The notes below the pieces were generated by a model. That model was given only the letters and a program-made list of their open reading frames with translations. It had not been told where the DNA came from and searched no databases. Below, piece after piece: positions 5,053 to 25,615 of a stretch of 62,477 nucleotides of DNA; the stretch's first letter is position 1; every line of letters starts with the position of its first letter. The DNA comes from an uncultured Ilumatobacter sp. (lineage in GTDB: Bacteria; Actinomycetota; Acidimicrobiia; Acidimicrobiales; Ilumatobacteraceae). The stretch spans positions 1-62,477 of the forward strand of contig CALIOL010000028.1 of the NCBI GenBank assembly GCA_938044705.1, in the 5' to 3' direction. A program made the translations under genes and the position numbers.

Positions 5053-5217
5053 GAGCCCTCCTTTCCTCCGGCCGTCGAGGACTGCAGACCCACCGCGGGC
5101 CGACGCGACGTCTGGGCGCTCTCTGCACAGCGTCGCATACTTGCGTCGTCGCACCGCAGCGACCAGAATCCGCCTCGCAGTGACACTGATGTCGCCGCGT
5201 CGAACGAGGAGTCGCAC

Positions 5218-5817
5218 ATGGGAGCGGGAGCAACGCCAGCGGGCTGGTATCCGGACGTCGAACGACCGGGTGGCGAGCGCTATTGGGACGGGTCGCTCTG
5301 GACCGATCAGCGTCGAAGTGCAGCTGACGCCGGTGGCGGGGCGACGTCGGCAGGGCCTGAGTCGGAACCCCCGTCGTTCGGTCAGGAGCCGCCGACCTAC
5401 GGGCAGGAGCCGCCCGCTTACGGCCAGCAGCCTCCTGCGTTCGGGCAACAGCCGCCGGCCTACGGGACCCCGCCCGCGGCTGCGTACGGGCAACCGCAGC
5501 CGGCCTACGGGTCGCCTGCCGGCTACACGCCATACGGCGCTCAGGGGACCGTGTACCCGAAGACGACAGTGCCCGGTTGGGCGCTCGGGCTGTCCATCGC
5601 CGGACTCGTTCTGTCGATCTGCTGCATCGGATTCCTCCTGTCGATCCCCGGCACCATCATGGGATGGACGTCGATGAAGGCGATCGACCGCGGAGAAAAG
5701 GACCCGAACCAGCGAGGCGTCGCAAAGGCCGCCTTCATCGTCGGTCTGGTCGGTCTGGTCATCGCCGTCGGATGGATCATCCTGGTGGTCATCAACGGCA
5801 CCCTGACGACCACCTGA
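5218..5817 (+). CDS. DUF2510 + DUF4190-like membrane protein
   Basis: N-terminal PAGWYPD...RYWDG.WT, Pro/Gln/Tyr repeats and two C-terminal TM segments; RBS GAGGAG before ATG 5218. Confidence 0.85.
   Translation: MGAGATPAGWYPDVERPGGERYWDGSLWTDQRRSAADAGGGATSAGPESEPPSFGQEPPTYGQEPPAYGQQPPAFGQQPPAYGTPPAAAYGQPQPAYGSPAGYTPYGAQGTVYPKTTVPGWALGLSIAGLVLSICCIGFLLSIPGTIMGWTSMKAIDRGEKDPNQRGVAKAAFIVGLVGLVIAVGWIILVVINGTLTTT
5380..5463 (+). repeat. 4 x 21-bp degenerate coding repeat (GQ[EQ]PP[TA][YF])
   Basis: GQEPPTY/GQEPPAY/GQQPPAF/GQQPPAY. Confidence 0.8.
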
Positions 5818-5832
5818 TCGGCGGCTCACTTC

Positions 5833-7107
5833 ATGTACCCCGTCCTGGTCTTCCCCGATGGTCGTCGCGTCGAGCTCGACTCCGACGTCGTCGTCGTCGG
5901 TCGTGCGCCGGTCGCACCCGAGGAGTTTCCCGCAGCTCGCTCGGTCAGCGTGTCGGCCCCGACCGTCTCGAAGACCCATGCGCTCATCGGCAGTGACGCC
6001 GACGGCGTCTGGTTGCTCGACCTTCACTCGTCCAATGGATCGGAAGCACTCGATTCGCTCGGAGTGAGCGAGCCAGCGATCCCAGGGCAGCGGTTGTCGA
6101 TTCCCGTTGGATCACACATTCGAATCGGGACCGACACGATCATCACGATCGACGCAGGTGTCCCGGCCGGTGACGACGACCGGACGGTGACGATTCACCC
6201 CGCTCCAAGCCCCGCGCCGACCCCGCCACCAACTCCGACACCACCCCCTGCGGCTGCGCCCGTCGACTGGTCGGCACTCGACCAACCCGCTCCGGCCGAG
6301 CCGAGCGCGGCTCCTGTCCTGCCGCAGCAACCTGCCGCGCAACCGCCGCCACCCGTCGCGCCGGCCCCGCAGCCTCTGCCACCAGTCGAATCGCAGCCGG
6401 CGTCGCCCGTCACGGAAGCGTTCACCCCGATTTCTCCCGCGGCGGCGCCTCCCGCCGCGACCCCACCCGCTCCCGCGCCGGGCTTCCAATCGGCGCCCGG
6501 ACCTGCATACGGCTCGGTACCGAGCTCACCCCCGCAGGTCTCATCGTCGGGAAGGTCGAAGGCTCACCTCATCGGAGCACTCGTGCTCGCGGTGTGGAGT
6601 GCGGTCGGCTTTGCCGACCTGAGGCGCTGGATCCCGGATGCGGTTGTGGACGCCGTCGACGGACGAATCATCGACTTCTTCGTCGTGCCCGATCGAGACT
6701 TTCTCGAGTTCGCAGAGTTCTACAGTTTCCTCAGCCTCCCCGATCCGCTCAGCTTCCTCGCACGTGGCGCGGACATCGGGCCGATCGTCGCCATCGTGTT
6801 CGGGGTGATCGCGCTCTTGGCACCGCGAGCTGCGGTTCGCTGGCTCCTCATCGGCCTGGTTGCGATTCCACTGGTCGTGCTGTTCGGCTTCCTTGTCACC
6901 ATCGGCGTCGACTCGTTCGAGGATCTGACCGAGGACATCGACCGATTCATCCCATGGTTCGTTCTCCCGGTGATCGGTTCGGTGTTGTTGATGCTCCCTC
7001 GACGGAGGTCTGATTCTGCCCCGGTGCCGTCTCAAGACGTGTTCTATGCTCCCAACCAGGCGGCTGGCCCGCCCGCTGCAGGGCCAGCAGCACCTCCGAT
7101 CTCATGA
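5833..7107 (+). CDS. FHA-domain membrane protein (FHA, Pro-rich linker, ~4 TM)
   Basis: VVGR..., VSKTH and DLHSSNGS FHA motifs; hydrophobic C-terminal segments. Confidence 0.85.
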   Translation: MYPVLVFPDGRRVELDSDVVVVGRAPVAPEEFPAARSVSVSAPTVSKTHALIGSDADGVWLLDLHSSNGSEALDSLGVSEPAIPGQRLSIPVGSHIRIGTDTIITIDAGVPAGDDDRTVTIHPAPSPAPTPPPTPTPPPAAAPVDWSALDQPAPAEPSAAPVLPQQPAAQPPPPVAPAPQPLPPVESQPASPVTEAFTPISPAAAPPAATPPAPAPGFQSAPGPAYGSVPSSPPQVSSSGRSKAHLIGALVLAVWSAVGFADLRRWIPDAVVDAVDGRIIDFFVVPDRDFLEFAEFYSFLSLPDPLSFLARGADIGPIVAIVFGVIALLAPRAAVRWLLIGLVAIPLVVLFGFLVTIGVDSFEDLTEDIDRFIPWFVLPVIGSVLLMLPRRRSDSAPVPSQDVFYAPNQAAGPPAAGPAAPPIS

Positions 7108-7589
7108 CCGTCATCGACCACGACCACGATCACGACGTCGGTCCTGGCGCGTCGGCGCACGGTTCGGTCGAGTTCGGGTCTGGGCCCGTCGGCTCGTGGA
7201 TTCGCCGAAGCCTCGTCTCTCCGTGGCGTGTTGGCCTGCTCGCAGTAGTTGCGGTGTTACTCGTCGACGCTGGCGGTACCGATGAGGGCGCTGGCGTCTG
7301 CGTCTTCCGGCGCTGCACCGGCGGGTACTGCCCGGGTTGCGGTCTGACGCGTTCGGCACGGCACCTGACCAGAGCTGAGGTCGGCGCTGCGTGGAGCGAC
7401 CACCCGTTCATGGTGCTCCTCGCGATCCAAGGTCTCGTCGCGGCGGCGTTGTACGCATCCTTCCGTCGCCTCCGCGAACGGCTCCTCTCAGTTCGAACGG
7501 TCGCAATCGTTGCGTCGGCGAATGGTGTCCTGTTGCTCTCCATCTGGGTCGTTCGGCTCATCGACGGATCGATCCCGCGCTTCTTCTGA
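7104..7589 (+). CDS. DUF2752-like membrane protein
   Basis: CVFRRCTGGYCPGCGLTRS motif; ATGA overlap with the upstream gene. Confidence 0.85.
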   Translation: MTVIDHDHDHDVGPGASAHGSVEFGSGPVGSWIRRSLVSPWRVGLLAVVAVLLVDAGGTDEGAGVCVFRRCTGGYCPGCGLTRSARHLTRAEVGAAWSDHPFMVLLAIQGLVAAALYASFRRLRERLLSVRTVAIVASANGVLLLSIWVVRLIDGSIPRFF

Positions 7590-8776
7590 TGGACGAAGGC
7601 ATGAGTGGGGCCGAGGAACTCGCCGCCGAGAGTGCACCTCGCCCGACGTTCACGTGGGGTGCTGGCACTCACGTCGGCGGCGTGCGCGAACACAACGAAG
7701 ACGCGTTCTTCGTGAGCCCCGACGTCTGTGTCGTCGCCGACGGCATGGGTGGTCACGAAGCCGGCGAGGTCGCGAGTCAGCTCGTCACCCATATCGTCGC
7801 CGACGTCTTCGGAGCACACCAGCTCGACGTCGCCGAACTGCCGAGGTTCGTGTCTGCGCTGAACGCAGCGGTGCTTCGCAAGGGCGCTGAGAACAACACT
7901 CGTGGCATGGGCACCACCGTCGTCGGTGTCGCGATCGCGGAGAACGGCGACACCCCATCAGCGGTGGTGTTCCACGTCGGCGATTCGCGCTGCTACCGGC
8001 TCGCCAATGGAGTGATGAAGCAACTGACCAGCGACCACTCCCATGTTCAGGAACTGGTGCAGGCCGGCCGAATCACGCCCGAAGAGGCGCTCACTCATCC
8101 GCTGCGCAACGTCATCACCCGAGCGTTGGGGGCAGATGTTGCCGTCGAGGCGGACTTCCACGTTCTCGACGAGGAGAACTGTCGCATCCTCCTGTGCTCA
8201 GACGGATTGAGCGGCGAAATCGACGATGACCGGATCTGGGACCTGCTCAGCTCGCACGGCGATCCGACCGCCGCGGCGGTCGCTCTGATCGACGCAGTGC
8301 TCGAAGGTCCGGCTCGTGACAACGTCACGGCGATCGTCGTCGACGTGGTGTTTCCCGAACCTGATCCTTCGCGGTCGACGTTGCCCGACGGAAACGGCTT
8401 TGCCGCTACCGATTCGACGGCTGACGACACTGCCGATGTGACCGCCGAATCCGGGGTCGCGACCACCGACGAGATCGCTGACATCACCGCAGATCCGGCT
8501 GACGACACACTCGAGCACGGCATCTCTCTCGAGACGCTGGATGACCACGCCCGTGCCTCGGTCGTCGAGCGCCACGCCGGTGCGGATCCCACCGAGGAGA
8601 TCATGATCACGCGTCCGTGGGCACCCCCGGATGCGTTCGATCGCCGCCACATCGAGATCGATCGCCCACCGACCGAGCCAGATGGTGCAGCATGGGCGTC
8701 ACCCGACGCGAACCGTGCCGACCAGCCCCCCGCCACCGATGAGGAGACAGGCAATGCCCGACAAGAAGACCACTGA
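7589..8776 (+). CDS. PP2C/PPM Ser/Thr phosphatase with acidic C-terminal tail
   Basis: REHNED, VADGMGGH, VGDSR, CSDGL and DNVT motifs; TGATG coupling at 7587-7591. Confidence 0.92.
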   Translation: MDEGMSGAEELAAESAPRPTFTWGAGTHVGGVREHNEDAFFVSPDVCVVADGMGGHEAGEVASQLVTHIVADVFGAHQLDVAELPRFVSALNAAVLRKGAENNTRGMGTTVVGVAIAENGDTPSAVVFHVGDSRCYRLANGVMKQLTSDHSHVQELVQAGRITPEEALTHPLRNVITRALGADVAVEADFHVLDEENCRILLCSDGLSGEIDDDRIWDLLSSHGDPTAAAVALIDAVLEGPARDNVTAIVVDVVFPEPDPSRSTLPDGNGFAATDSTADDTADVTAESGVATTDEIADITADPADDTLEHGISLETLDDHARASVVERHAGADPTEEIMITRPWAPPDAFDRRHIEIDRPPTEPDGAAWASPDANRADQPPATDEETGNARQEDH

Positions 8777-10337
8777 AGACGATGCCGCGAGCTCGGAGGC
8801 AGACAGCCAGGATGCTGCGCTTGCTTGGGGCACGACGTCGTTCGAGCCGGGTGGAGACGTCGGACTGGTTGCGCAGCAGACCGTTGGACTCGTGGAGCGT
8901 GACAATCCTTCGACTCGAGAGAAGCTCTGGAGTCTGGTCTCCGGTGACGCTCCCTTGGACGACATCTTGGACGAGCTCTCGTCGACGGGGTTGAAGGCAC
9001 TTCCCGACTTCGGGCTGGCACAGGTCGAGGGAGCAGCGATCCGCATTGTTGCCCGCGGTCAGATCAGGATTGCTGCAGAGCTCTCGTCGGGGTCGGTGCA
9101 CGAGATCGACCCGTCTGGTGTGAGGACCTGGATCGAGGAACTCGTCGACGACGTCGTCGCCATCACCATCGCGCTTCCGGCACGCGACGACGACACGCCA
9201 GCAGCAAGCACGGATGCGTTCGCCGTCCTCGCGGGATCGGTGCCGGCGACTTCGTTGTCTCGGCGCTACGACGCGCCCGACGCTCTCGCCGAGACTGCGA
9301 CGAGCGGCGCGGGATGGACGGCCAGAGGCGCCGGTGCATCGACGGCTCCGGAAACGCCGGCTCCGGAAGAACCGGCTCCGGAAGAACCGGCTCCAGAAGA
9401 GGAGTTGGCTGCTTCGGCGCCCGCCGCGACATCGGACGTCGATCTGGAGATGGTGGATGACATCGACGTGCCGGACGCCGCTGTCGAGCCGGACGCTGTC
9501 GAGGAGGCCGGGGACAACTGGTTCGACGAGCAGGCCGGTGACTCCGCGGCCGTGATCCCACCGCAACCGCAGATGGACGATGTCGTCATCGAGGGAGATC
9601 TCGCCGAGGTGGCGCCCGCCGATGCGGTCGACATCACCGCCGACCCGGAGCCCGAGGCCGCCGAACCTGCGAGCGCACCGCCCGCCGATGCGCCGCCGGC
9701 CGACCCGCAGCCAGCGTCGCCGCAACCGCCGCCACCGGTTGCCGCGCCGTCCGGCCCGCCTCCCAGCAGCCCTGGTGCAGGCGGTCCGCCGCCACCCGCC
9801 GAACGCCCAGATGCAACGGTGGTGGTCGGGCCCGACGACGGCCCCACGCGAGGCCCCGTCAGCTCGATTTTCGACGACGACTTCGACGATCACGCCGCCG
9901 GAAGTACTCCGATGGGCGACCACGACGGTATGACTGCAGCTCATGCTGAGCTCGACGATGGGGGTTCCGCAGGGATGCCACCGACAGATGCGCCCGTGTA
10001 CGGCGTCCTTGCGTTCTCGAACGGTGAACGCATCAACGTCGACCGTGCGGTGCTCATCGGACGCAATCCGAAGGTCGCAGGAGCAGTCGAGGGCGGGCTC
10101 CCGCACATCATGAAGTTCGACGGCCCGGGTCAGGGATTGTCGCGGACTCACGCCGAAGTACGCGTCGAGGCGGGCGAAGTCGTGATCGAAGACCTGCAGT
10201 CCACGAACGGGACCGAAGTGCAGCTCCCCGGGCAGCAGCGACGCCGCCTTCGCGCTGGCGAACCGGTGGTGATCGTGCCGGGAACGCTCGTCGACTTCGG
10301 TGACGAACTGCACTGCACGCTCGAATCGGCGAGCTGA
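8754..10337 (+). CDS. C-terminal FHA-domain protein with acidic/Pro-rich linker
   Basis: IGRNP, LSRTH and DLQSTNGT motifs; RBS GAGGAG before ATG 8754. Confidence 0.88.
   Translation: MPDKKTTEDDAASSEADSQDAALAWGTTSFEPGGDVGLVAQQTVGLVERDNPSTREKLWSLVSGDAPLDDILDELSSTGLKALPDFGLAQVEGAAIRIVARGQIRIAAELSSGSVHEIDPSGVRTWIEELVDDVVAITIALPARDDDTPAASTDAFAVLAGSVPATSLSRRYDAPDALAETATSGAGWTARGAGASTAPETPAPEEPAPEEPAPEEELAASAPAATSDVDLEMVDDIDVPDAAVEPDAVEEAGDNWFDEQAGDSAAVIPPQPQMDDVVIEGDLAEVAPADAVDITADPEPEAAEPASAPPADAPPADPQPASPQPPPPVAAPSGPPPSSPGAGGPPPPAERPDATVVVGPDDGPTRGPVSSIFDDDFDDHAAGSTPMGDHDGMTAAHAELDDGGSAGMPPTDAPVYGVLAFSNGERINVDRAVLIGRNPKVAGAVEGGLPHIMKFDGPGQGLSRTHAEVRVEAGEVVIEDLQSTNGTEVQLPGQQRRRLRAGEPVVIVPGTLVDFGDELHCTLESAS
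9344..9403 (+). repeat. 4 x 15-bp tandem coding repeat (APEEP-like)
   Basis: ggctccggaaacgcc / ggctccggaagaacc x2 / ggctccagaagagga. Confidence 0.85.
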
Positions 10338-10343
10338 GCGCTG

Positions 10344-11054
10344 ATGGGTTTGGTCGTCGACTTCGTCGGGGCCCGTACGACCCTGGTGCCCGGCGAGACC
10401 TTTGTGATCGGGCGAGAAGGTGATCTCGTCGTCGACGACAATCCATTCCTCCATCGGCAATTCCTCACGCTGACCGATCCGGGCGGGGTCTGGGTGCTGA
10501 CGAACGTCGGTGATCAGCTCGCTGCCACCGTGTCGGACCCCGAGGGTCGACTCGAGGCCTTTCTCGGCCCGGGTGCTGTCCTGCCGATCGTGTTCGAGCA
10601 GACACTCCTGCGGTTCACCGCTGGTCCGACCACCTACGAGATCTTGCTGCTCCACGATGCGCCCGCGTTTCGAGCCAGCCCGCTCGAGGATCCGGTCATG
10701 GACGATTCGGACGGTCGAGCAACCATCGGTCGGGTGATGCTGACCCTTGATCAGCAGCTGCTGATCCTCGCGTTGGCCGAGGCGGGACTCACGTCGGGTG
10801 GCGGCGCGTCGGCGGTGCTGCCAACGAGCGCTCAGGCCGCAGCCCGGCTCGGCTGGACGGTGACGAAGTTCAACCGGAAGCTGGACAACGTCTGTGACAA
10901 GTTGAGCAAGCTTGGCGTTCGCGGGTTGCACGGGGATGCGGGGCGGCTCGCTTCGAATCGCCGGGCGCGACTGGTCGAGTACGCGCTTGCGGTCCGCCTG
11001 GTCACCCGTGAAGACCTCGCTGTGCTCGATCAGGCAACGGCTCACGCCGACTGA
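10344..11054 (+). CDS. degenerate-FHA + C-terminal HTH-like protein
   Basis: N-terminal FVIGREGD..DNPFLHR..W.L.N.G (FHA-like); C-terminal 'SAQAAARLGWTVTKFNRKLDNVCDKL' (HTH-like). Confidence 0.7.
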   Translation: MGLVVDFVGARTTLVPGETFVIGREGDLVVDDNPFLHRQFLTLTDPGGVWVLTNVGDQLAATVSDPEGRLEAFLGPGAVLPIVFEQTLLRFTAGPTTYEILLLHDAPAFRASPLEDPVMDDSDGRATIGRVMLTLDQQLLILALAEAGLTSGGGASAVLPTSAQAAARLGWTVTKFNRKLDNVCDKLSKLGVRGLHGDAGRLASNRRARLVEYALAVRLVTREDLAVLDQATAHAD

Positions 11055-11188
11055 CGCACGAAGCCAATCTCTCCGTCGGCGTGGGCACTGCGGAGGTGCT
11101 CAGATCGTTGCGTGCCCGTGGTGCACCAGGTGGGTCGGTCATGATGTGTCCGTGCAGTGTGAGCAATCGATGACCGCGCGAGCATCCG

Positions 11189-12367
11189 ATGTGTGAACGC
11201 TGCCTGCCGCCGCTCTCGCGTCGGCAGGTGTTGGGCCTTGCCGGGGCAGTAACGGCCGCTGCGCTCCTCGGCCCTCCGAATCCAGCCGCAGCGGCCCGGG
11301 CGTTCCAGACCGGCTACGGCGTGGCGATCGAGCCGCGAGCCACGTGGGCCGGCGACAGCCGCCCGACGTTGGCCACTCCACCTGACGAAACCGTGAGGTT
11401 CCTCCTCGTCCACCACACCGCCGGTCCGAGCGAAGGTGACCCGATCGAACTCATGCGTCAGGTCTACGACTTTCACACCGGTCCAGAAAAGGGCTGGCCT
11501 GACGTGGCGTACAACTTCTTCGTCGAACCCGGCGGACGAGTGTTCGAAGCTCGCGCGGGCAGTCTGAGTCGGGCGGTCGAGGCGTCGGCGACGGGCGGGA
11601 ACCAAGGCTTCGCTCAACTCGTCTGTCTGCTCGGTGACTTCACGAGTCGGAACCCGACCGACGCACAACTCGCCTCGCTCAACCAGACCTTGGCGTGGTT
11701 GGCCGACCGGTACGGACTCGACACGTCACCAGGAGCAACGAGTTCGTTCACGTCCCGAGGTTCCAACAGATGGTCGGCAGGCACCGAAGTGACCGCCGAC
11801 ATCATCTCGGGTCACCGAGAAATGAGCGCTACCGCATGTCCGGGTGACACGTTCTTCCCGTATCTCAAGGAGCGGGTGCAAGCCGAGGTCCACACGCTGC
11901 GTGGGAGTCCTCAGGCTCCGGTTGAGGAGCCCGACACGTCGTCGACACAGGTCCCGGCGTCGACGCAGGCGCCGGTGCCGACGACCGAACCGGTCTCGTC
12001 GACACCGTCGGTTGTGGTCTCATCCACCGCCGCACCACAACCGGTCAGTACGACGACGGTCCCTCCCGACACCGTGGCGACAGTTGCCGCGCCCACCACG
12101 GCGCTGGACCCGTCGGTTGCGCCCGGTTCGGTGCCGTCCGGCGGCGAGTTCGCCGATCGAGCGGCTGGGGTCGGTCAGGCAGCCACGGGCCGAACGTCGA
12201 CGAGCGTGGCGCCTTGGACGATCGGCGCCGGCGCAGCCACGGTTGCCGCTGCGGCTGCCGGGGCGTTGTATCTGGGGGCGCGCTCGCGCCGCGAGACCGG
12301 TGAAACGTCGCCGCATGCGGACGATTCCCAACGTCCGCCACCAGGCGGAGCGGACCCGTTGGCCTGA
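11189..12367 (+). CDS. Tat-exported N-acetylmuramoyl-L-alanine amidase (Amidase_2/PGRP) with C-terminal anchor
   Basis: SRRQVL Tat motif; VHHTAG, DVAYNF, GHRE and TACPG Zn-amidase motifs; Thr/Pro stalk, then TM and basic residues. Confidence 0.88.
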   Translation: MCERCLPPLSRRQVLGLAGAVTAAALLGPPNPAAAARAFQTGYGVAIEPRATWAGDSRPTLATPPDETVRFLLVHHTAGPSEGDPIELMRQVYDFHTGPEKGWPDVAYNFFVEPGGRVFEARAGSLSRAVEASATGGNQGFAQLVCLLGDFTSRNPTDAQLASLNQTLAWLADRYGLDTSPGATSSFTSRGSNRWSAGTEVTADIISGHREMSATACPGDTFFPYLKERVQAEVHTLRGSPQAPVEEPDTSSTQVPASTQAPVPTTEPVSSTPSVVVSSTAAPQPVSTTTVPPDTVATVAAPTTALDPSVAPGSVPSGGEFADRAAGVGQAATGRTSTSVAPWTIGAGAATVAAAAAGALYLGARSRRETGETSPHADDSQRPPPGGADPLA

Positions 12368-12560
12368 CGGTCCCGGCGCTCGCTCGCCGTGTTCGACCCG
12401 CTGCGCCGAGCGGCGCTTCGGTCCGGAGGGTGACATTGCTGCACCCGATCTCCTAAGTTTGCGTCGTTGTGAGAGCAGACGCGCCGAGCGAGTGCTGTCC
12501 GGGCGGGACCGGAACGAGTCGAAGGAGCCCTGACGCGCCTGCTCCGACGGGGCAAGCAAC

Positions 12561-13622
12561 GTGAGCCTGCGGATCGACGGTTTCAACGACGTCGCCCCGC
12601 TCGCCGGCGGTGGGTTCGGGTCGGTGTACAAGGCAACCAGAGCGTCGACCGGCGGAGTCGTGGCGCTGAAGGTCCTCGATCGAGCCCACGGTGACGACGA
12701 CGATCTCCTCGAACGTCGCCTCCGGCGTGAGATCGCTGCGCTCGTTGCGCTCAAGGGGCACCCGAACATCGTTCAGGTCGAACAGGTCGTGAGCACAGCG
12801 AACGGTCCTGCGATCGTGATGGAGTTCATGAGTCGCGGCTCGGTGCTGGACTCTGACGAGGCGGGGAACACCGCGGCAGCGCGCGTTGCGTTCATCGGCG
12901 CTGCTGCTGCCGCCGGGCTCCAAGCTGCTCACGACGTCGGCATCGTGCATCGCGACGTCAAGCCCCAGAACGTGCTGGTCAACAACTTCGGGCAGGTGAA
13001 GCTGTGCGACTTCGGCATCGCCGCGATCCAGAAGTCAGCGGAGTTCCAAACGCACACGACTGCGCTCTCGGTTCGGTACGCGAGTCCGGAGGAGTTGGAC
13101 AACGACCCGGACATCGGAGCGCCCACCGACGTCTACTCGTTGGGCGCGTCGATGTTCCACCTCATGTACGGGGAACCTCCATCGTTCCGAGGCGGTCGCG
13201 GCGCCGATCCGAACCTCACTCGCAACAACCGGGGCAATGATCCGGTCGCCGACAACGTTGCGACCATCATCGAACGCTGCCTCGCCGAGGATGCCAAGGA
13301 CCGGCCGACCGCCAACGAGTGCTTCGGGTTGCTGTCGGACGTGACCGGGCCGGGAGCTGCGAAGATCGAAAACGAGCGGGAGTCTCCGATCGCTGCTCGG
13401 CGACGACGTCGGCGCGAGGCGCAAGGCGACGACATCACGGCGGAGCGACCGAGCAAGGACCGTCCGTCATCGGGGCAACCGTCGCAGCCGCCGCCGCCGA
13501 ATCCGGCCGATCGCCGAGATGATTCGGGCGCAGCGCCGCTGCTTCCCTCGGGCGATCCCTCCGGTCCCGCCCCAGCGCCGAAGTCCCTGCCGCCGACGTC
13601 GAACGAACGCTGGTGGACGTGA
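12561..13622 (+). CDS. soluble Hanks-type Ser/Thr protein kinase
   Basis: [28 protein letters not shown] and DVYSLG motifs; no TM segment. Confidence 0.93.
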
Positions 13623-17696: not shown

Positions 17697-18838
17697 GCAC
17701 ACGATCGGGCGACTCGGGCGGCGACCTGGTGGCGAAGCTCGCGTTGACTGCCGTCGTCGCTGTGGTCGTCGGCGTCGTGAGCGCTGTCAGCGATGTCGGG
17801 GGAGTGTTCACCGTCGTCGCAGTACTCGCTGCCGTGGCGGCATTCTGGGTACTCGACGCGGCGATTCGCCCGTCGTCTGATCACTCGCTCAGCCTGGCTC
17901 CAGGCGCCGGCGGAGCGGCGCTGGCGAGCACCGGGACGCTTCCAGCCTCCGTGTCGACGCAACCGCCCCTGCGCGGGGTGGAGCCGCCGACCGTGGGCGA
18001 GCCGGTCAATCCGGGAACCCGGCCCGTGGTGGCCGACAAGCAGACGGCGACGTTGGATCCATCGCTGTTCGATCCTCAGAGTGTCGAGGTCTCGACCAGC
18101 TCGCAAGGAACGAGCCGTGTCTTCTCGTTGCGGATCGCAAAGCACGGCAACGGAATTGCCGAGTGTGAAGATGCTGTTGCGCTCGACCCCCGGCGTGGTG
18201 TGCTCGCCGTCGCCGACGGGGCTTCGTCGTCCTTCGGCGCAGGCCCCTGGGCTGACACGTTGACGAAGCAGTTCGTGCAGGCACCGCCCAAACCGCTGTC
18301 GGTCGCATCGTTCTCAGAGTGGCTCGGACAAGCGCGTCACGCGCTCCCGGCCGCGGCCGGTGCAGAATCCGACGACCCGAATGGCTGGTGGAGCGAGCAC
18401 GGCGCCCGCCAAGGGGCCTTCTCGACGATCGTGGGGGCCGCGATCATGACCGACGGCGGGTCCCGCGTTGCGACGGTGATGTGCCTGGGTGACTCATGCG
18501 CATTCGTCCTCACGGGGCCTCGAGGAGATCGGGTCGTGCGACGATCGCTGCCCTACGAAGACAGCGAGCAGTTCGGGTCGCATCCTGCACTGTTGGGTTC
18601 GATGGCCGATCGTGCACATGACGAGCCGACATGGACGACGGTTCCCACCGCTCCGGGTGATCTGCTGGTCTTGGCAAGCGATGCCGTCTCGGAATGGCTA
18701 CTCGCCGACCCCCGGCGGTTTCAGCTGTTCGACGGAGACGGGCCTGATGAGATCGCCGGCCGTCTCATCGCGGAGCGCACCGACGGAAAGATCGTGAACG
18801 ACGATCTCACCGTCGCGGTGCTCGAGCTCGCGTCGTGA
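17693..18838 (+). CDS. PP2C-like phosphatase with N-terminal TM hairpin
   Basis: KHGN...CEDA, AVADGAS, LGDSC, LASDA and NDDLT motifs; two N-terminal hydrophobic helices. Confidence 0.85.
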   Translation: MSTRSGDSGGDLVAKLALTAVVAVVVGVVSAVSDVGGVFTVVAVLAAVAAFWVLDAAIRPSSDHSLSLAPGAGGAALASTGTLPASVSTQPPLRGVEPPTVGEPVNPGTRPVVADKQTATLDPSLFDPQSVEVSTSSQGTSRVFSLRIAKHGNGIAECEDAVALDPRRGVLAVADGASSSFGAGPWADTLTKQFVQAPPKPLSVASFSEWLGQARHALPAAAGAESDDPNGWWSEHGARQGAFSTIVGAAIMTDGGSRVATVMCLGDSCAFVLTGPRGDRVVRRSLPYEDSEQFGSHPALLGSMADRAHDEPTWTTVPTAPGDLLVLASDAVSEWLLADPRRFQLFDGDGPDEIAGRLIAERTDGKIVNDDLTVAVLELAS

Positions 18839-18881
18839 GCCTGCGGTCGATGGAGCGGCACGCCCTGCCGAAGCTCTCGGG

Positions 18882-19715
18882 ATGAAGCCGGGCACCATCG
18901 CAGTGGTCGTGGTCGCGACCGCACTCGTCCTAGGCGGGTTGTTCTTCGGGCTCGGAGGGCCCTCGGAGCGCGGTGCTTCCAGCGATTCGATTCCGCGGGC
19001 GACGTTGCCGCCCAGCACGGTCGCCCCACCAGCACCCGCGGTCATCGGAACCGACGCACCACCCGAGCCGTCCGAGAGCGAGGGGACCAGTGTCGGTGAC
19101 GCCGAGACACTGCCGGTCCCGAACGTGATCGGCGTGAGCCAGGCGACAGCCGAAGCGCGTCTCTCCGACTTCGCGGTCTCCGTCACGACGGCGTTCGCGA
19201 CCGACCCGGACTTCTTTGATGCGGTCTCGGCACAGAGCCCGGCTGCAGCGGAGCGCCTTCCAGCAGGAGCGACGGTCTCGATCACGCTCTCGGTACAGCC
19301 GACGCCCGAGACCACCCCAGCGGACCCGGTGCCCTTCGGCGAGCTCACGCGGGCCGACCTCGCAGATCTCGGCGATGGTGATTGCGCGAACCGATCTGTC
19401 GTCGACTCCGAGTTCGTCTACGAACTCGCCGATTGCGATGTCTTCCACGACGTGCAGCTCATCAGTCGCTTCGATCTCGACAACGCGCCCGACCAGTACG
19501 ACTCGCTGGCGCTCGACGAGTTGGTGCGCGATCAATGCGAGGACCGCTTCGAGGAGTTCGTCGGAGTCGAGTTACGCGACTCCCAGCTCTCATTCACGTC
19601 GTTGCGTGCCGATCGGGAGACGTACGAAAACAACAGCGACCGGGTCGTCCTGTGCCTTCTGAAGCCTGACGAGTCGGTCAGGATCCGCGGGTCGGCTGCG
19701 AACTCGCTGTGGTGA
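18882..19715 (+). CDS. membrane-anchored PASTA + septum-formation-type domain protein
   Basis: VPNVIGVSQATAEARL...V.AQSP.A...P.GATV.ITLS (PASTA); GDC...DC...HD.Q...C...F..FVG...DR.V.C (septum formation domain pattern). Confidence 0.8.
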   Translation: MKPGTIAVVVVATALVLGGLFFGLGGPSERGASSDSIPRATLPPSTVAPPAPAVIGTDAPPEPSESEGTSVGDAETLPVPNVIGVSQATAEARLSDFAVSVTTAFATDPDFFDAVSAQSPAAAERLPAGATVSITLSVQPTPETTPADPVPFGELTRADLADLGDGDCANRSVVDSEFVYELADCDVFHDVQLISRFDLDNAPDQYDSLALDELVRDQCEDRFEEFVGVELRDSQLSFTSLRADRETYENNSDRVVLCLLKPDESVRIRGSAANSLW

Positions 19716-19833
19716 AGCATTCTCGGCGACCAGTGGTGGGGAGTTCTCCCCAGGTTTGAGACCGGCTTCGTCCTCGTCGACCGGATAGAAACACAGGGGT
19801 GGACCGAGGACCCGAGAACGAGGAGGTCATGCA

Positions 19834-21945
19834 ATGACGAGCGATGCCGGCCTGGGTGACCCGATCGCGACGCTGATGATCGTGGGTCACGGAAACCATC
19901 CGATGCGCGGCCTTGTCACCGTTGGTCGCGACCCGCGAGCTGGTGAGGGAGTCACGATCGAGGTCAGCGGAGATCCGCTCGTTTCGAAGTCCCACCTGAG
20001 TCTCGACACCGATCAGGGCGACGTGATCATCACCGACCTCGGTTCCTCGAACGGCACGTTTCTGCATCACGCTGCTGGCGAAACTGCGGTTCCGAGCGAC
20101 CGATGGATCCCGGTTCCCGAAGGGGCCGAGATCGAGTTCGGCGATCAGCGGATGACGATCGAACGAGCTGGAACGGGCGCCGTCGTCGATGGCGCTTCGC
20201 ACGACGCGACAACGATCGAGAACGTGGAGCCGATGGCGCGGCCAGTGGAGGCCATCTCGGGGAGCTTCTGGTCCGACGATGCGGCCGACGAGACCTCAGC
20301 AGGAACATCTCCAGCGGCAGCTGTGCCAGGAGATCACCTCATCGAGTGTTCGAATTGCGATCGCGCCCTTCCGCCGGGGTCCAAATTCTGCGATGGATGT
20401 GGAACGCCGGTGATGCCAGAGGCGGCGCCTGAACGTCCTGCTGAGGCCCCTGCTGAACCGCCTCATGAGGACGCCGGGCACACCGTCGTGGTCCCTCAGG
20501 GTGGATATCACGTGGCCAATCCGACGCCCGCGGCCATCGCTCCCGAAGCGCCCGCGCCGCAACCGGGCCCACCCGCGGCCCAGTACGCCGCGGCACCGCA
20601 ATACGGCGGCGTGCAGCCGGGCTCACCATCGCCGGTTGCGCCTCCCGGGCACCCGCCAGCGCCTCAGTCGTTTGCCGGAGCAGCGCCGCAGTACGACGGC
20701 GGGCTCAACTTCGTCGACCCTGCTGCGTCACAGACCAAGGGTGGTGCTGGCAAGAAGATCACTCTCGCCGTCGGTGTGGTGGTCGTGCTCGGCTTGCTCG
20801 GGATCGGACTCGTCAGCGTGCTCGGCGGGGACTCGGCCGCAGGGGGCCGCGGCGTCGGAGCCGCAGTGCCCACCGAACTCGAGGAGCTGTGGTCGACCGA
20901 CGTCGAGGGGGCGTTGCCGGTGCCGGCGGTCGGTGAGTCCGCAGTGTTCGTCATCTCGGAGGATGACGACGACCTTCTCGTCACGAGTCTCACCCGCGAC
21001 GACGGCGACGAGAATTGGGATGTCATCATCGACGAGGCCGACTTCGGGCGGTTCGTCGGCGAGTTCGACGACGTGGTGGTCATCAGCGTGTGCGCGTTCG
21101 ACGCGGACACCACCTGTGCCGTGGTCGGCCTCGACAGCGAAGACGGCGACGAGATCTGGAGAGACTCGCTGGACGACGGCGTCGCCTTCATGAACGCCGG
21201 CGGGCTCATCGTGAGCGACGAAGACGGGGTGACGCTGTTGGATCCCGCGACCGGTGATCGGATCGAACGGATTCGCGGCGACTCGAATTTTGCCGACCTC
21301 AACGGGCTGCTCGTGGACGACGACGGCGAGGTCTCGGCATACGACACTGAGCTCCGGCCCATCTTCGGTCCGGTCGACGTCGACGTCGACCAGGCGAACG
21401 CCGGAACGTTCGATGGTGAACGGTTGCTCGTCGCGTTCGATGACGAGATCGAGTACGTCGACGACACCGGAGACACGACGTCGGGGCCGCTACTCGATGG
21501 CGAGATCACACGTCTGGTCGCGGTTGATTCCACGACGCTCGTGGCCGAACTGGGCGACGAGGTCGTCGTCTACGATCTCGACGGCGACGACGCCGAGGAG
21601 CGTTGGTCGGAGAACGGGATTCTCTTCTCGGTCGCCGAACCCGATGGTGGCGCAGTCGTCATCATCGATACCGGAACCGAGCGTGTGGTCGTCGACCTCG
21701 AATCAGGGGACGATCGATTCGACATCGACGCCGAGGGTTTCGATGTCGTGACGCAGCAGGCATCGAATGCGTTCGTGGCGATCGATCGCACTGACAGCAC
21801 GGGCTTTTCGGGTGATGCGACCATCACGGCCTTCGACTGGATCACCGGCGACGAGATCTGGTCGGAACAAGTCGAAGGCGAAGTCTCGATCGCCGACATC
21901 GTCGTCGTCGTCGAAACGGACGGGGATGTCACCGCATTCGGCTGA
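19834..21945 (+). CDS. FHA + zinc ribbon + TM + PQQ-like beta-propeller protein
   Basis: VGRDP, VSKSH and DLGSSNGT; CSNC..FCDGCG; single TM; repeated DG.E.W propeller blades. Confidence 0.85.
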   Translation: MTSDAGLGDPIATLMIVGHGNHPMRGLVTVGRDPRAGEGVTIEVSGDPLVSKSHLSLDTDQGDVIITDLGSSNGTFLHHAAGETAVPSDRWIPVPEGAEIEFGDQRMTIERAGTGAVVDGASHDATTIENVEPMARPVEAISGSFWSDDAADETSAGTSPAAAVPGDHLIECSNCDRALPPGSKFCDGCGTPVMPEAAPERPAEAPAEPPHEDAGHTVVVPQGGYHVANPTPAAIAPEAPAPQPGPPAAQYAAAPQYGGVQPGSPSPVAPPGHPPAPQSFAGAAPQYDGGLNFVDPAASQTKGGAGKKITLAVGVVVVLGLLGIGLVSVLGGDSAAGGRGVGAAVPTELEELWSTDVEGALPVPAVGESAVFVISEDDDDLLVTSLTRDDGDENWDVIIDEADFGRFVGEFDDVVVISVCAFDADTTCAVVGLDSEDGDEIWRDSLDDGVAFMNAGGLIVSDEDGVTLLDPATGDRIERIRGDSNFADLNGLLVDDDGEVSAYDTELRPIFGPVDVDVDQANAGTFDGERLLVAFDDEIEYVDDTGDTTSGPLLDGEITRLVAVDSTTLVAELGDEVVVYDLDGDDAEERWSENGILFSVAEPDGGAVVIIDTGTERVVVDLESGDDRFDIDAEGFDVVTQQASNAFVAIDRTDSTGFSGDATITAFDWITGDEIWSEQVEGEVSIADIVVVVETDGDVTAFG

Positions 21946-22375
21946 CGCCGTCCACCGACCGATCTGGCTCACCGTCGGAGTTCCGGTGGGTTGGGTCGTT
22001 GCCGGGGTCGCGCTGCTGTCCACGTCGTCGACACGTTGGTTCCGGCGCGGACCCGGATCGCGGTTCGGTGGTCTGGAACTGGCCGACAGCATCCGCTCCG
22101 GCGTGCTCTCGCCCAGCTGGGGCGTCTGGGTTGCGGCTGCGGTGTATGCCCTCTTTGCGCTCGGAGGAGGGTTCATCGCCACTGCGGTGATGGAGAGTCG
22201 TGTGGTGCTTGCCGTGCGCGCCGTCGTTGCGGTGACCAGTCTCTTCGGCTTTCTGCTGCTCAGTCGTGCAATCCCGCCGTCGAACTGGTCGTCCGGACCT
22301 ACCATTGCCACGCTTGCGTTTGGCCTCGCTGTTGCGCTGTCAACGGCTCAACTCGTGAACCACCTGAGGAACTGA
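21926..22375 (+). CDS. small 4-TM membrane protein (paralog of 42251-42709)
   Basis: Four hydrophobic segments; LADSIRSG..P..GVWVAA motif shared with the paralog; start uncertain. Confidence 0.75.
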   Translation: MSPHSADAVHRPIWLTVGVPVGWVVAGVALLSTSSTRWFRRGPGSRFGGLELADSIRSGVLSPSWGVWVAAAVYALFALGGGFIATAVMESRVVLAVRAVVAVTSLFGFLLLSRAIPPSNWSSGPTIATLAFGLAVALSTAQLVNHLRN

Positions 22376-22379
22376 CTCC

Positions 22380-24545
22380 ATGACCCCATGTCAACACTGT
22401 CACCATGAGCTGAGCCCGGACTCGCAGTTCTGCCCGGAGTGCGGAACCCCGGTTGCTGATGCGGTCGGGCCAGCGAGCGCCGGCCCTGACAACATCGCGA
22501 TGTCAGGCGATGGCTCTCCCGGGGCGGCCCCACCGACGGTGCCCGAGACCTCGCGCCCATGGCAGCCGGAGTACAGCGACTCCCCGGCAACCGCCGTCGT
22601 GCCCCCGGCAGCGAGCTTCGCGCCGAGCGGACCACCGCCTGCTCCGAATACGCCTCCGATTGGCTCGCCCGGCCAGGTCCCGCCGCAGTCGCCGCCGCCT
22701 GGTGGTCACGCTTCACCGCCAGGCTCTCCGAACTTCGGTGCCGCCGCGTTTCCTGGACATCCCGGTGCCGACCACTCCGGACCGCAGCCGCAGTTCGTTC
22801 CGGCCGACCAGCCGTCGACCGGTGGCAAGGGGAAGCTGATCGGGCTCGGACTCGGCGTGGTCGGATTGCTGGCCATCGGATTCCTGGCACTGCGGTTTCT
22901 CACCGGTGGCGGGGACGTCGGCGGTGCTGACTCACCCGAAGCTGTGGTCGAGGAGATGGTCGCCGCCATCAACGCGCAGGACCCGCTCGCACTCGTCGAC
23001 CTGATGGCGCCGGACGAACTCGACGGCGTGGATCAACTCGTCGAAGACGGTGCCCAGTACATCGATGACCTCGGCCTTCGAACGCTGCTCGACGAGAACA
23101 CCGAGGACGGTTCCTCCATCGATGTGGTCATCGACATCGAGGCCGACCGCGTCGATGTGTCGATGGAGGGCGAGAGCGCTGCGATCGTCTCCTTCGAGCT
23201 GTCCGGCGACATCGAGGCGAGTGGCAACGACGCAATGAGCGACACGTTGGGTGAGGACGAGATCTCGTTCGACAGCCGCGACCTCGACAGCTCGTTCCCG
23301 ACGCAAAGCGGCGATCTCGAGATGATCGTCGTCGAGCTGGACGGCAAATGGTTCTTCAGCCCGATGTTGACCACAGGTCACTACATCGTCGAAGCAGCAG
23401 GGCTGCCCTCCGGCGAGTACGACGACATCGGCGGCGATCGGGACCCGGGCGGAGAGTCGCCGGTCGAGGCGATCGAAGCGCTCGTTGAAGTCATCAACAA
23501 CCCCGACGCCGACGCCCTCGCAGGGGTCCTCGGTGGCGGCGAGGGCCGCGTTGCTCTCGCTTTCCGGGATGCCATCGACGATGCGTTCGCAGAGATCGAC
23601 ACCGGTGAGTTTCGCTATGAGGTGAGCGTCGAAACCGACGACCTCGGATCGGGTCGGGTCGAGCTCGAAGAAATCGAGCTGAGAGTTGCCGGTGACTTCG
23701 GCGACTCTGCAACGGTCCTGATCGAAGAAGACTGCCTCGAGTTCCGCGACAACGGGGAGCTCATCTCCGACGACTGTCTTCTCGACGTGCTGGACCTGCC
23801 AACCGACTCCGAACTGGACACCACGCTCTGGCTCGACACGGCTCAGGAGGACGGCAGTTACCGGGTGCGGATCGTGCCGACGATCACCGACGTGCTCGGC
23901 AGATTCCTCACGGTCATCGACGACAGACAAACGCTGCTGTTCGTCACCGACAGCGCACAGCTCGATGACCCGAACATCGTCGAGCCGGGAAGCGACATCG
24001 AGATCGACTTCGACGGCCAGCTGTATGCCGTGAACGAATTCGAGATCGAAGCCGGCGAGGTCTACAACGTCACGGCGAGCGAAGACACCGAGTTCGATCT
24101 GTTCGTGGACGGTGAGTTCGGCTCGCTGCAACAGCGGTTCGGAAACAGCTTCGAAGCTCAGGTCGACGGTGTCGCACGTGTGGTCACGTATTCGGAGATC
24201 GAACGCGATCGTGAGTGTGGTGTCCTCGGGTGTATCCCCACCGGTGACGGTGAGGCGACACTTCGCATCCGCCGTGCGGCGAGTCAGTCGCTGCCGTTCC
24301 CGACACGAATCTCAGGAGAGTTCGGTCCCGGGGACATCCGGATCTTCGAACTCGAAGTCGAAACCCAACAGCGGGTGCGCATCGACGTCATCGGCGACGG
24401 CATCGAATGGCGCATCGAAGATGACTCCACCATCTTCGTCGACACCGACACCTACGACTTCCCGCCTGGCACATACGAGATGATCGTCATCAACACGAGT
24501 GGCGACGACGACACCAGCTACGAGATCTCGCCGACGCCGGCCTGA
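22380..24545 (+). CDS. zinc ribbon + Pro-rich + TM + large acidic ectodomain (paralog of 39537-42254)
   Basis: CQHC..FCPECG, a TM, then GGADSPE..., IVVELDGKWF.SP. Confidence 0.85.
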   Translation: MTPCQHCHHELSPDSQFCPECGTPVADAVGPASAGPDNIAMSGDGSPGAAPPTVPETSRPWQPEYSDSPATAVVPPAASFAPSGPPPAPNTPPIGSPGQVPPQSPPPGGHASPPGSPNFGAAAFPGHPGADHSGPQPQFVPADQPSTGGKGKLIGLGLGVVGLLAIGFLALRFLTGGGDVGGADSPEAVVEEMVAAINAQDPLALVDLMAPDELDGVDQLVEDGAQYIDDLGLRTLLDENTEDGSSIDVVIDIEADRVDVSMEGESAAIVSFELSGDIEASGNDAMSDTLGEDEISFDSRDLDSSFPTQSGDLEMIVVELDGKWFFSPMLTTGHYIVEAAGLPSGEYDDIGGDRDPGGESPVEAIEALVEVINNPDADALAGVLGGGEGRVALAFRDAIDDAFAEIDTGEFRYEVSVETDDLGSGRVELEEIELRVAGDFGDSATVLIEEDCLEFRDNGELISDDCLLDVLDLPTDSELDTTLWLDTAQEDGSYRVRIVPTITDVLGRFLTVIDDRQTLLFVTDSAQLDDPNIVEPGSDIEIDFDGQLYAVNEFEIEAGEVYNVTASEDTEFDLFVDGEFGSLQQRFGNSFEAQVDGVARVVTYSEIERDRECGVLGCIPTGDGEATLRIRRAASQSLPFPTRISGEFGPGDIRIFELEVETQQRVRIDVIGDGIEWRIEDDSTIFVDTDTYDFPPGTYEMIVINTSGDDDTSYEISPTPA

Positions 24546-24570
24546 CGACGATGCAAGAGGAGGTCCGCAG

Positions 24571-25521
24571 GTGAAGAGGATCCAGTGCGGCCGCTGCGGC
24601 GAACCCAATCACGGAGACGCTCGGTATTGCGGGAGCTGCGGCGACGCGCTGCCCGTTGCGGGAGGGATCGCCTCGCTCGTCAGTGAGGATCCGCTGCTCG
24701 TGGAACAAGCAACAACTCTTGCGGCGTCCACCCAGCACGTCGAACCACCAGCGTTCGGGGAGACTGGCCCAGCGGTGACCAGTGCGGTCCGCGCATCACC
24801 CGCGCAGCCGACCGCAGTCGTGACGCAACCCGACGGCGCAACCCACGGGCAGACGGCCTCGAATGCTGCCCCGATGGGTGCGGAGCGCACCCCGTCGCGC
24901 TCGGTCCGGGTGATGATCGCGGCGGTCGTCGTCGCTGTGATCGTGATCGTGGGCGGATTGTCGATTCTGATGGCCTCAGGATCCAGTGGCGATGAGAACG
25001 CGCGTCCTGAAACCTCTGAACCGCCGGCGGCGTCGACCGACGCCGAGGTGGCCGCGGTCGAGAGTTCCGTCGTCGACGATCTCGAGACCGTCGAGACCGA
25101 GCCCGCCGAGGTCATCGTGACGTCCCAGACCGGGACTTCCGAGACCGTTGCCACCGAAACGACGTCCCCGCCCCCGCCCCCGACCCGGGGACCCGGCGAC
25201 CTCGGCTTGACGCAGCCGATCCTCGACGAGGAGTGCGACGGCCGGTACGTCACGTTCGTCGGCTCAGCAATTGGTGACCGCCCCTACAGCACCGTGGTGG
25301 ACGAACTGCTCGATCTCTATCCGGGCACGAACTACGTCTGGACCAAGGCGTGCCCTTCTCTTCGTCAAGAATTCTCAGATGGTGCCGACATCTATGGCGT
25401 GGTGTTCGGTCCGTACGCCACGCAACAAGAAGCATGCGACGCCAGGGCGTTCGGACCGCAAGATGCATACGTCCGACGAATCAGCACATCCGACCCAGAG
25501 GACCACACGGTCAGCTGCTGA
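24571..25521 (+). CDS. zinc ribbon + TM + Cys-containing extracellular domain protein
   Basis: CGRC..YCGSCG; TM; GPGDLGL...CDG...CPSLR...FGPY...AC; RBS GAGGAGG before GTG 24571. Confidence 0.82.
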   Translation: MKRIQCGRCGEPNHGDARYCGSCGDALPVAGGIASLVSEDPLLVEQATTLAASTQHVEPPAFGETGPAVTSAVRASPAQPTAVVTQPDGATHGQTASNAAPMGAERTPSRSVRVMIAAVVVAVIVIVGGLSILMASGSSGDENARPETSEPPAASTDAEVAAVESSVVDDLETVETEPAEVIVTSQTGTSETVATETTSPPPPPTRGPGDLGLTQPILDEECDGRYVTFVGSAIGDRPYSTVVDELLDLYPGTNYVWTKACPSLRQEFSDGADIYGVVFGPYATQQEACDARAFGPQDAYVRRISTSDPEDHTVSC

Positions 25522-25615
25522 TCGGGGAGTCCTCCCCGTTCCATGATCGGTCGATGATCCGTACGTTGCGTGACGAGGCAAAGCGGCCGAAGACGACCAT
25601 CGGAGGACACCCGAC

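Follow-up and report, generated by a model that had tools for sequence, protein, structure and literature searches.

Which kind of system is encoded where Ser/Thr kinases, phosphatases, phosphothreonine-reading FHA domains and cell-envelope proteins lie together in a single run of genes is the question raised by a locus of an uncultured Ilumatobacter sp. (Acidimicrobiia). The locus lies in a stretch of 62,477 nucleotides, referred to below as the window, which is contig C28 (CALIOL010000028.1) of an 82 % complete genome (GCA_938044705.1, designated G000), and it comprises 17 genes, g1 to g17, all on the + strand between positions 5218 and 25521. An original prediction had proposed a self-contained and undescribed envelope-sensing, contact or defence system. 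Judged by its gene content, the island is not wholly unknown but a composite of two known kinds, the relay half of the Esr (epibiont sensing and response)/PFNA loci and a TerY-P triad. The most useful new result is that g6 is predicted to combine an FHA domain with a LuxR/NarL-type helix-turn-helix (HTH), and that a palindrome, GGGGA-N4-TCCCC, tracks g6. The favoured reading, to which we give a little better than an even chance, is that an Esr-type relay has here been rewired to take its input from a membrane TerY-P module, forming one cell-surface threat-sensing circuit with its output through transcription by g6.

The gene set was obtained by codon scoring and gene calling, and domains were assigned from Pfam, NCBIfam, PADLOC and motif checks. 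The predicted co-orientation and frequent coupling of the genes were borne out, with eight of the 16 junctions overlapping, four gaps of 25 bp or less and four gaps of 43 to 193 bp. The features, with their coordinates in the window and strand, are listed below (TM, transmembrane; a full stop marks an element without strand).

3754..5052 (-): GH3 (NagZ-type) lipoprotein gene (PF00933, 1.5e-47; lipobox), divergent flank, not a constant part
5141..5169 (+): conserved sigma70-like candidate promoter of g1 (TTGCG, 17 nt, CAGAAT); the boxes align in 9 congener upstream regions, with variation
5218..5817 (+): g1, DUF2510 and DUF4190 membrane protein, present also in reduced versions of the site
5833..7107 (+): g2, intact FHA, Pro-rich linker and multi-TM region; presence variable
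7104..7589 (+): g3, DUF2752 membrane protein
7589..8776 (+): g4, EsrF/PrpC-like PP2C phosphatase (NF033484, 1.7e-63, slightly below the cut-off)
8754..10337 (+): g5, EsrG-like, with an N-terminal 'phosphatase-like' domain, a disordered middle with DHDGxT, and an intact FHA
10344..11054 (+): g6, FHA and LuxR/NarL/GerE-type HTH, predicted transcription factor (structure models, fold searches)
11189..12367 (+): g7, Tat-exported Amidase_2 with Zn-ligand motifs
12430..12459 (+): conserved promoter-like element 5' of g8 (GTGACA, 18 nt, TAAGTT)
12561..13622 (+): g8, soluble Hanks kinase with intact catalytic motifs and no TM segment; C-terminal conserved Thr motif and acidic-WW tail
13613..15784 (+): g9, TerY-P-type kinase, WW linker, multi-TM region and degenerate FHA (PADLOC)
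15781..16851 (+): g10, N-terminal anchor and hypervariable acidic Cys-containing ectodomain, candidate sensor
16851..17696 (+): g11, TerY vWA with intact MIDAS (PADLOC)
17693..18838 (+): g12, TerY-P-type PP2C with two N-terminal TM helices (PADLOC)
18882..19715 (+): g13, anchored PASTA and Septum_form protein, accessory
19738..19751 (.): GGGGA-N4-TCCCC palindrome, candidate g6 operator, 34 nt 5' of a -10-like TAGAAA (19786-19791)
19834..21945 (+): g14, intact FHA, Zn ribbon, TM segment and PQQ-type beta-propeller ectodomain
21926..22375 (+): g15, small multi-TM protein of no family
22380..24545 (+): g16, Zn ribbon, TM segment and large ectodomain
24571..25521 (+): g17, Zn ribbon, TM segment and conserved C-terminal ectodomain
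25524..25537 (.): second GGGGA-N4-TCCCC palindrome, 92 bp 5' of g18
25616..25972 (+): g18, 118-aa open reading frame (ORF) of no family, possibly of the same regulon

The full model of g6 has a score of 86.5 in pLDDT, the predicted local distance difference test, and its N-terminal domain has the FHA fold (Z 13.0). The C-terminal domain was also modelled alone (pLDDT 85), and its top 19 structural matches are all LuxR/NarL/GerE HTHs at Z 7.0 to 9.2, values that are middling for a helical domain. The four-helix HTHs of GerE (1fse), NarL (1je8), DosR (1zlk) and VraR (7ve5) superpose on 62 to 70 residues of g6 with a root-mean-square deviation of 1.4 to 3.2 Å; g6 has insertions, and its input domain is an FHA, in contrast to the receiver or autoinducer domain of LuxR/NarL proteins. 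Foldseek gave a target TM score of about 0.8 but E values of 0.2 or more, the ESM Atlas match (0.82) is a lead only, none of 63 g6 family members matched Pfam GerE, and a sequence search of the C-terminal domain against the PDB returned nothing meaningful. The HTH-like protein of the original prediction is upheld and sharpened to a predicted transcription factor with a LuxR/NarL-type fold and a candidate operator. FHA domains are also found in regulators of the EmbR type, whose DNA-binding domain is of another, OmpR-like kind. Operators of the LuxR/NarL/GerE family are typically inverted repeats.

The palindrome was first seen 5' of g14 by aligning intergenic DNA of congeners. In the genome of the island the spacer of four gives 14 matches, all of them intergenic, against 1 to 2 for each other spacer. 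Loci with g6 homologues were surveyed with 10-kb flanks, using the best 80 of at least 402 loci, mostly of Microbacterium and Brachybacterium; in the 79 loci other than the island there are 55 matches with spacer 4, in 41 loci, against 2 to 6 for spacers 1 to 3 and 5 to 8. In 30 of the 35 g6 loci that hold a WXG100-type gene, the palindrome lies less than 300 bp (median 113) 5' of it, and 77 canonical TerY-P loci gave a single match in 655 kb. The median count per genome is 7.5 in 20 g6-positive and 2 in 38 g6-negative genomes (2 and 2 for the spacer-5 control), and spacer 4 exceeds spacer 5 in 19/20 and 12/38 genomes, respectively, with three weak-hit genomes left out; as the genomes are kin, these contrasts overstate independence. 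Genome G449 has boxes at the divergent promoter between its TerY-P variant and Esr genes, and others precede its EsrA operon and two WXG100 genes. A box precedes g8 in four of the seven congeners that carry the block; the window has none at that place, and the locus stretches of G005, G016, G032 and G220 yielded none. Genes preceded by a box in the island's own genome encode SPFH, CD225, DUF4870, MoxR, Zn peptidase, ABC ATPase and lipoprotein-like proteins and many without a family. The palindrome is, on these statistics, a candidate g6 operator. The idea of an RNA hairpin was rejected, since the predicted fold does not contain one (z +0.98). A third box in the window, at 56173-56186, lies 230 bp 5' of a gene for a Pro-rich protein without a Pfam family.

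The genes around g6 resemble part of the Esr pathway described from Actinomycetes (Wang et al., bioRxiv 2026, PMC13622651), in which a Saccharibacteria epibiont is perceived through EsrA, a Thr of the disordered region of EsrG becomes phosphorylated and expression of Esx genes is switched on, and for which the step from EsrG to transcription is declared unknown by its authors. Among the 80 g6 loci, kinase family F1 occurs in 76, the g5 family in 70, PP2C family F3 in 64, transglutaminase and RDD-FHA proteins in 55 each, DUF58 in 54, MoxR in 48, EccC in 43 and a large Fn3 protein in 21, with families labelled by inspection, by Pfam on homologues and from the table of PMC13622651; the matching gene set is the PFNA operon of bifidobacteria (PMC8430577). 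In the island g4 and g5 stand for an EsrF PP2C adjoining EsrG, and g5 has the EsrG architecture of phosphatase-like domain, disordered region and FHA. The N-terminal domain of g5 matches a hidden Markov model (HMM) of 62 Esr-locus homologues at 9e-20; its direct match to the PP2C profile is not significant (E 0.13), and the label 'pseudophosphatase' therefore rests on PMC13622651. The kinase g8 clusters with the Esr-locus kinases (family F1) but lacks the TM segment that anchors EsrE, and its closest relatives outside such islands are kinases paired with g6 in G017, G035 and G006 (41-45 % identity). Table S3 of PMC13622651 has the same order, EsrF-EsrG-EsrE-EsrG (241 aa), with proteins of 233 to 253 aa given as 'FHA_2' EsrG, one of them at the g6 position; because size and place agree, these proteins of about 240 aa are presumed to be g6 homologues. 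A strict scan of the proteins for D-x-T-x-hydrophobic motifs gave few matches. Taken together, the island probably works like the Esr relay half.

Esr clusters were also seen elsewhere in Acidimicrobiia (G573:C5, G018:C36, G449:C5, G316:C239 and G220:C8, these five with Esx; L072, L074 and L079). G573 and G018:C36 hold Esr-Esx genes without TerY-P, and Esr is thereby extended to this class. The island's own genome has an EccC-like ATPase gene on C2 (2934-7106) and an orphan WXG100-like gene on C14 (1450-1719), unlinked and possibly a minimal Esx system.

The other half matches TerY-P, a set of vWA, PP2C and kinase whose OB-fold forms are antiphage (PMC11090510, PMC7699616) and which has been described both as an antiphage system in its own right and as an add-on to other conflict systems (PMC11090510, PMC7699616, PMC7159879). 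PADLOC models matched g9 (PDLC02223, 9.2e-53, spanning only positions 3-266 of the 562 of the profile), g11 (PDLC02224, 1.8e-67, full length) and g12 (PDLC02222, 1.3e-22). The two kinase domains, two PP2Cs, three intact and two degenerate FHA domains counted in the original prediction were all recovered by Pfam, PADLOC, motifs and fold search: g8 matches Pkinase at 8e-46, g9 has no Pkinase match in the Pfam search and is recognized instead by the PADLOC TerY-P kinase model, g4 and g12 both carry metal-binding motifs, the FHA domains of g2, g5 and g14 have the GR, SxxH and NG motifs, and the degenerate ones are those of g6 (GR, with the Arg at R24, and N retained) and of the g9 tail (Arg lost). 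The predicted MIDAS of the vWA protein g11 is likewise present, with D19, S21, S23, T137 and D170 invariant in 55/55 aligned homologues, and g11 is the most conserved gene of the island (88-94 % identity between congeners). At the position of the catalytic (beta3) lysine g9 has Arg, as do 18/18 aligned and 101/107 pattern-scored family members; local decay was rejected as its explanation, since Arg is a family trait. The multi-TM and FHA tail of g9 represents a large unannotated family (610 representatives, E 1e-10 or better) that is often stand-alone. The canonical gene order is present in 12 of 17 order-level genomes and the variant order of the island in two (G449, G453); the variant was also found in 3 of 80 metagenome loci. 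Further sets were noted. On C229 of the island's genome (3673-7363) a kinase gene runs divergently to two vWA genes and one PP2C gene, with a g7-like amidase 5 kb away (labels by inspection). In G697:C15 and G632:C222 (L256, L257) the triads are in canonical order, their kinase is TM-anchored and a g16 homologue comes next, the G632 triad also being preceded by a g7-like amidase.

By their sequences and arrangement g8 and g9 appear to form a unit. The C-terminal tails of 105 complete kinase ORFs were scored, and ORFs without a stop codon were dropped. Initially 9/9 kinases preceding a g9-type gene ended in WW, 92 others did not, and four ended in WW without g9; three of these four are island kinases missed by the adjacency rule, with g9 directly 3' (one a duplicate row), and one (L130) is unrelated. 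Because of these three, the recount gives a WW end in 12/12 kinase rows (11 distinct) directly 5' of a g9-type gene against 1/93 others. The WW kinase of locus L180 is only 34 % identical to g8, while those of G017 and G035, which are closer to g8 (45 %), lack WW and carry a TM helix. In 13 of 26 representatives the g9-type kinase is fused behind a Hanks kinase that is 30-38 % identical to g8, and WW stands at the junction in only one of the 13. These fused forms (P0183, P0191 and 11 others) are tandem kinases of about 1000 aa, composed of Hanks kinase, TerY-P kinase, multi-TM region and FHA-like domain; two of them are named proteins from cultured Nocardioides, and a plasmid search with the fused kinase returned generic kinase-domain matches only. 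We infer that the WW tail of g8 may dock on g9 or on TerY.

The linkage of the Esr and TerY-P halves is recurrent. Outside the genus the variant triad was found at seven loci, in three of which (G220, G316, G449, in three other genera) a complete Esr-Esx locus adjoins it. Homologues of g7, g14, g15, g16 and g17 are present in G220 as well. L175 has an upstream FHA gene and is truncated by the end of its contig, and G453 and L174 are too short to judge. Within the genus the block is present in 7 of 36 congeners, which is the conserved linkage that the original prediction had proposed to look for, and TerY in 3 of 15 near-complete ones; where contigs reach, the block always stands between an LLM or NagZ gene and udp. 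The carriers as a single clade were rejected on the acetyl-CoA synthetase tree (approximately unbiased test, p-AU 2e-5; one gene, 21 genomes, of which 20 from 60 relatives); a search of the island's own genome, 82 % complete, did not find rpoB. Reduced, nested versions occupy the same site in G032, G013, G017 and G035, and an ancestral variable locus with repeated loss therefore fits. Recent horizontal arrival was rejected, the GC content being like that of the flanks and the window having no tRNA gene.

All 13 genes tested against G036 by the ratio of non-synonymous to synonymous substitution rates (dN/dS) are under purifying selection, ten of them at 0.07-0.20 (g11, 0.074), and g10, g13 and g14 at 0.58, 0.37 and 0.33. 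TerY is 88-94 % identical where the flanking udp is 75-83 % identical. The anchor of g10 is 62-79 % identical among congeners and its ectodomain was matched in one of six, at 28 %; Pfam-type searches gave no family for g10 and the ESM Atlas no usable match. The propeller ectodomain of g14 has 37-55 % identity between congeners. The fast-evolving g10, g13 and g14 are candidate replacement sensors. Domain and motif checks agree with the prediction of a Tat amidase, a PASTA protein (with Septum_form in addition) and three Zn-ribbon/TM/ectodomain proteins. The amidase gene g7 adjoins g8 in 7/7 carrier congeners.

Conserved promoter-like elements precede g1, g8 and g14 in the congener intergenic alignment, so that several transcription units are likely; the locus has at least three such regions. 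The term 'self-contained' finds no support. A generic promoter and terminator scan was at chance level.

From gene content, folds, synteny, selection and motif statistics we infer the following binding and signalling steps. The variable ectodomains of g10, g14, g16 and g17 would take the place of the absent EsrA-D filament and perceive contact or damage to the wall. The multi-TM kinase g9, kept together with TerY and its PP2C, would relay the signal to g8, a soluble kinase whose own TM anchor is lost and whose WW tail would serve for docking. The targets of g8 would be Thr motifs of disordered linkers, the g5 linker among them; candidate sites are the Thr of DHDGxT in g5, T126 and T127 in g6 and a DDxT motif in g8. 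The phosphorylated motifs would be bound by FHA readers including g6, and g6 would act at GGGGA-N4-TCCCC, turning on esx genes where the lineage keeps them and, in this genome, genes for membrane or surface proteins. The phosphatases g4 and g12 would reset the switch. Writer, reader and eraser lie in one locus as had been claimed, with the transcriptional output predicted. A broader proposal, which we advance tentatively and rate at slightly less than an even chance, is that the g6 family are one-component phosphothreonine-reading transcription factors that form the Esr output in Microbacterium, Brachybacterium and Acidimicrobiia by activating esx operons through the palindrome; the island would then be a sensor-swapped Esr, with a tandem-kinase TerY-P complex and hypervariable ectodomains in place of EsrA-D, and marine Ilumatobacter would sense surface parasites or attackers by a second, so far undescribed input.

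A number of observations weigh against the rewired relay. None of EsrA-D and the esx genes is among the 17 island genes, so that by the criteria of PMC13622651 the island is not an Esr member; homologues of MoxR (EsrB), DUF58 (EsrC) and transglutaminase (EsrD) lie on other contigs (C368, C309, C191), and an HMM of 8 homologues, run against the whole genome (82 % complete), gave no long EsrA and nothing beyond a partial match of 340 aa on C315. The variant locus L180 has no Esr or Esx genes. TerY-P genes lie within 10 kb in only 1/80 g6 loci, and g6 with g8 occurs without TerY-P genes in G017, G035 and G006, which shows the halves to be separable. The g9 kinase has Arg where E. coli YegI requires Lys39 (10.1101/819920). 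With regard to the operator, the kinship of the genomes has been mentioned; for the only WXG100-like gene of the genome (C14) and its EccC-like gene (C2) the checked stretches contain no box, with up to two mismatches allowed; 8 boxes occur in G032, where g6 had no match, and G020 has g6 and only 2 boxes. Three g6 paralogues exist in the genome, and the boxes thus need not belong to the island g6. Of the two paralogues besides the island g6, on C181 (16066-17903) and C349 (3-1483), one is beside an FHA gene and a two-component pair and the other is divergent from a kinase gene near two very large proteins. Finally, no g6-like gene follows esrG1 in the Schaalia Esr1 rows listed in Table S1 of PMC13622651 and g6 was found in only 12/401 genomes of the phylum, so that g6 is not a universal Esr output.

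The separability of the halves speaks for the alternative that two independent modules share one variable site without cross-talk, an anti-phage or stress switch of the TerY-P type (g8-g12) and an Esr-derived relay with its regulator (g4-g6). The separate conserved promoter-like element before g8 and the patchy carriers, which are not a single clade, are in keeping with it, as is the description of TerY-P triads as stand-alone systems and plug-ins (PMC11090510, PMC7699616, PMC7159879). We nevertheless consider it rather unlikely: the nearest non-island kinases of g8 pair with g6, the g6-linked box stands 5' of g8 in 4/7 carriers and at the G449 divergent promoter, the g9 tail is TM-FHA and not the antiphage OB fold, and the variant recurs beside Esr-Esx in three genera.

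The main idea of the original prediction was a circuit of peptidoglycan or envelope homeostasis, in which amidase, NagZ and PASTA proteins make and sense muropeptides and tune wall remodelling. The constant place of the amidase beside g8, the amidase before the G632 triad, M23 peptidases in the G220 and G032 versions and the SPFH, CD225, DUF4870 and lipoprotein-like genes behind boxes would suit such a role. The NagZ-type gene is indeed divergent from the first gene, yet it is at the site in only 3/5 informative carriers (absent in G036 and G016), the PASTA gene is in only 2/7 carrier congeners and PASTA is on no kinase, so the muropeptide theme is weak. A canonical FHA-FHA-PP2C cluster lies elsewhere in the genome on C111 (labels by inspection), the box points to esx genes in other actinobacteria, and the patchy loss in near-complete congeners (TerY 3/15) disfavours a housekeeping role. 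This explanation is therefore held to be improbable, and of envelope sensing, contact and defence, 'contact or defence' is best supported. That the island is a decaying relic of an Esr-Esx locus, left without its sensor and secretion genes and no longer coherent in function, is very improbable. The nested reduced versions at the same site, the two degenerate FHA domains and the missing canonical Lys of g9 could be read in that way, but purifying selection on all 13 tested genes, the identity of TerY relative to udp, the family-wide Arg and the conserved promoters and boxes speak against it.

Three neighbouring features were recorded. The g18 gene, the 18th + strand ORF, is without a match in the mapped congener regions. 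A 905-aa protein encoded at 39537-42254 has an N-terminal Zn-ribbon-like motif and no Pfam family, and lies upstream of nuo-like genes. Small ORFs at 26803-27768 (-) match the ResA-like WAxxUGC family (NF041054) weakly, and one of them terminates in AFSSW before its stop codon, a possible selenocysteine read-through.

If the rewired relay is correct, the island offers a named regulator candidate and a 14-bp candidate operator for the step between EsrG and transcription that PMC13622651 leaves open, and since the candidate operator precedes WXG100 genes in cultured Microbacterium and Brachybacterium, that step is directly testable. Complete Esr-Esx loci are extended to Acidimicrobiia, and TerY-P triads would gain a link to a defined relay by way of the tandem-kinase unit, which in cultured Nocardioides is a single protein. 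The claim of an undescribed system stands in part: both halves match described systems (Esr/PFNA and TerY-P), and the combination was not found in a literature search, which returned no paper on the gene combination or operator and at most archaeal ArnA-ArnB and surveys, most subscription journals being outside its coverage.

The island was also compared with known systems. It is distinct from the pknB cluster, as had been stated, since no penicillin-binding protein, RodA or PASTA-fused kinase was found among its genes with Pfam and NCBIfam. With the TerY-P triad (YegL-PphC/YegK-YegI in E. coli; Anantharaman 2012 and Gao 2020, as referred to by PMC11090510 and PMC7699616) it has in common a vWA protein with MIDAS, a cognate PP2C and a cognate kinase, and YegI is a membrane kinase like g9 (10.1101/819920). 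It differs in gene order (kinase-g10-vWA-PP2C as opposed to vWA-PP2C-kinase), in the two TM helices of the g12 PP2C, in a second kinase with a WW tail upstream of, or fused to, the TerY-P kinase, and in the C-terminus of g9, which is multi-TM and FHA-like, whereas known TerY-P kinases have an OB fold or Zn ribbon there and the antiphage type of Gao 2020 an OB fold. With Esr it shares a PP2C (EsrF), EsrG, a Hanks kinase (EsrE) and an FHA protein of about 240 aa in the same neighbourhood, a beta-propeller ectodomain and Zn-ribbon-FHA proteins, with esx linkage in relatives. Esr is reported as effectively limited to class Actinomycetes (PMC13622651), in contrast to the host of the island in Acidimicrobiia; names of Ilumatobacter or Acidimicrobi- were not found in the searched part of its Table S3, and its main text makes no mention of TerY, HTH, LuxR, palindromes or Acidimicrobiia. 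Where that table gives the proteins at the g6 position as 'FHA_2' only, the present analysis recognizes a predicted LuxR-type HTH and a candidate operator. The island lacks the EsrA filament with its Ig, Fn3 and beta-propeller domains, MoxR, DUF58, transglutaminase and esx genes, its kinase is soluble and a TerY-P variant is added. The variable propeller of g14 echoes the variable propeller of EsrA. A relay of kinase, PP2C and FHA protein tied to envelope attack and secretion is also formed by PpkA-PppA-Fha, the threonine phosphorylation pathway of type VI secretion systems (T6SS). This pathway controls the Gram-negative T6SS post-translationally, whereas the output proposed for the island, which has no T6SS, is transcriptional.

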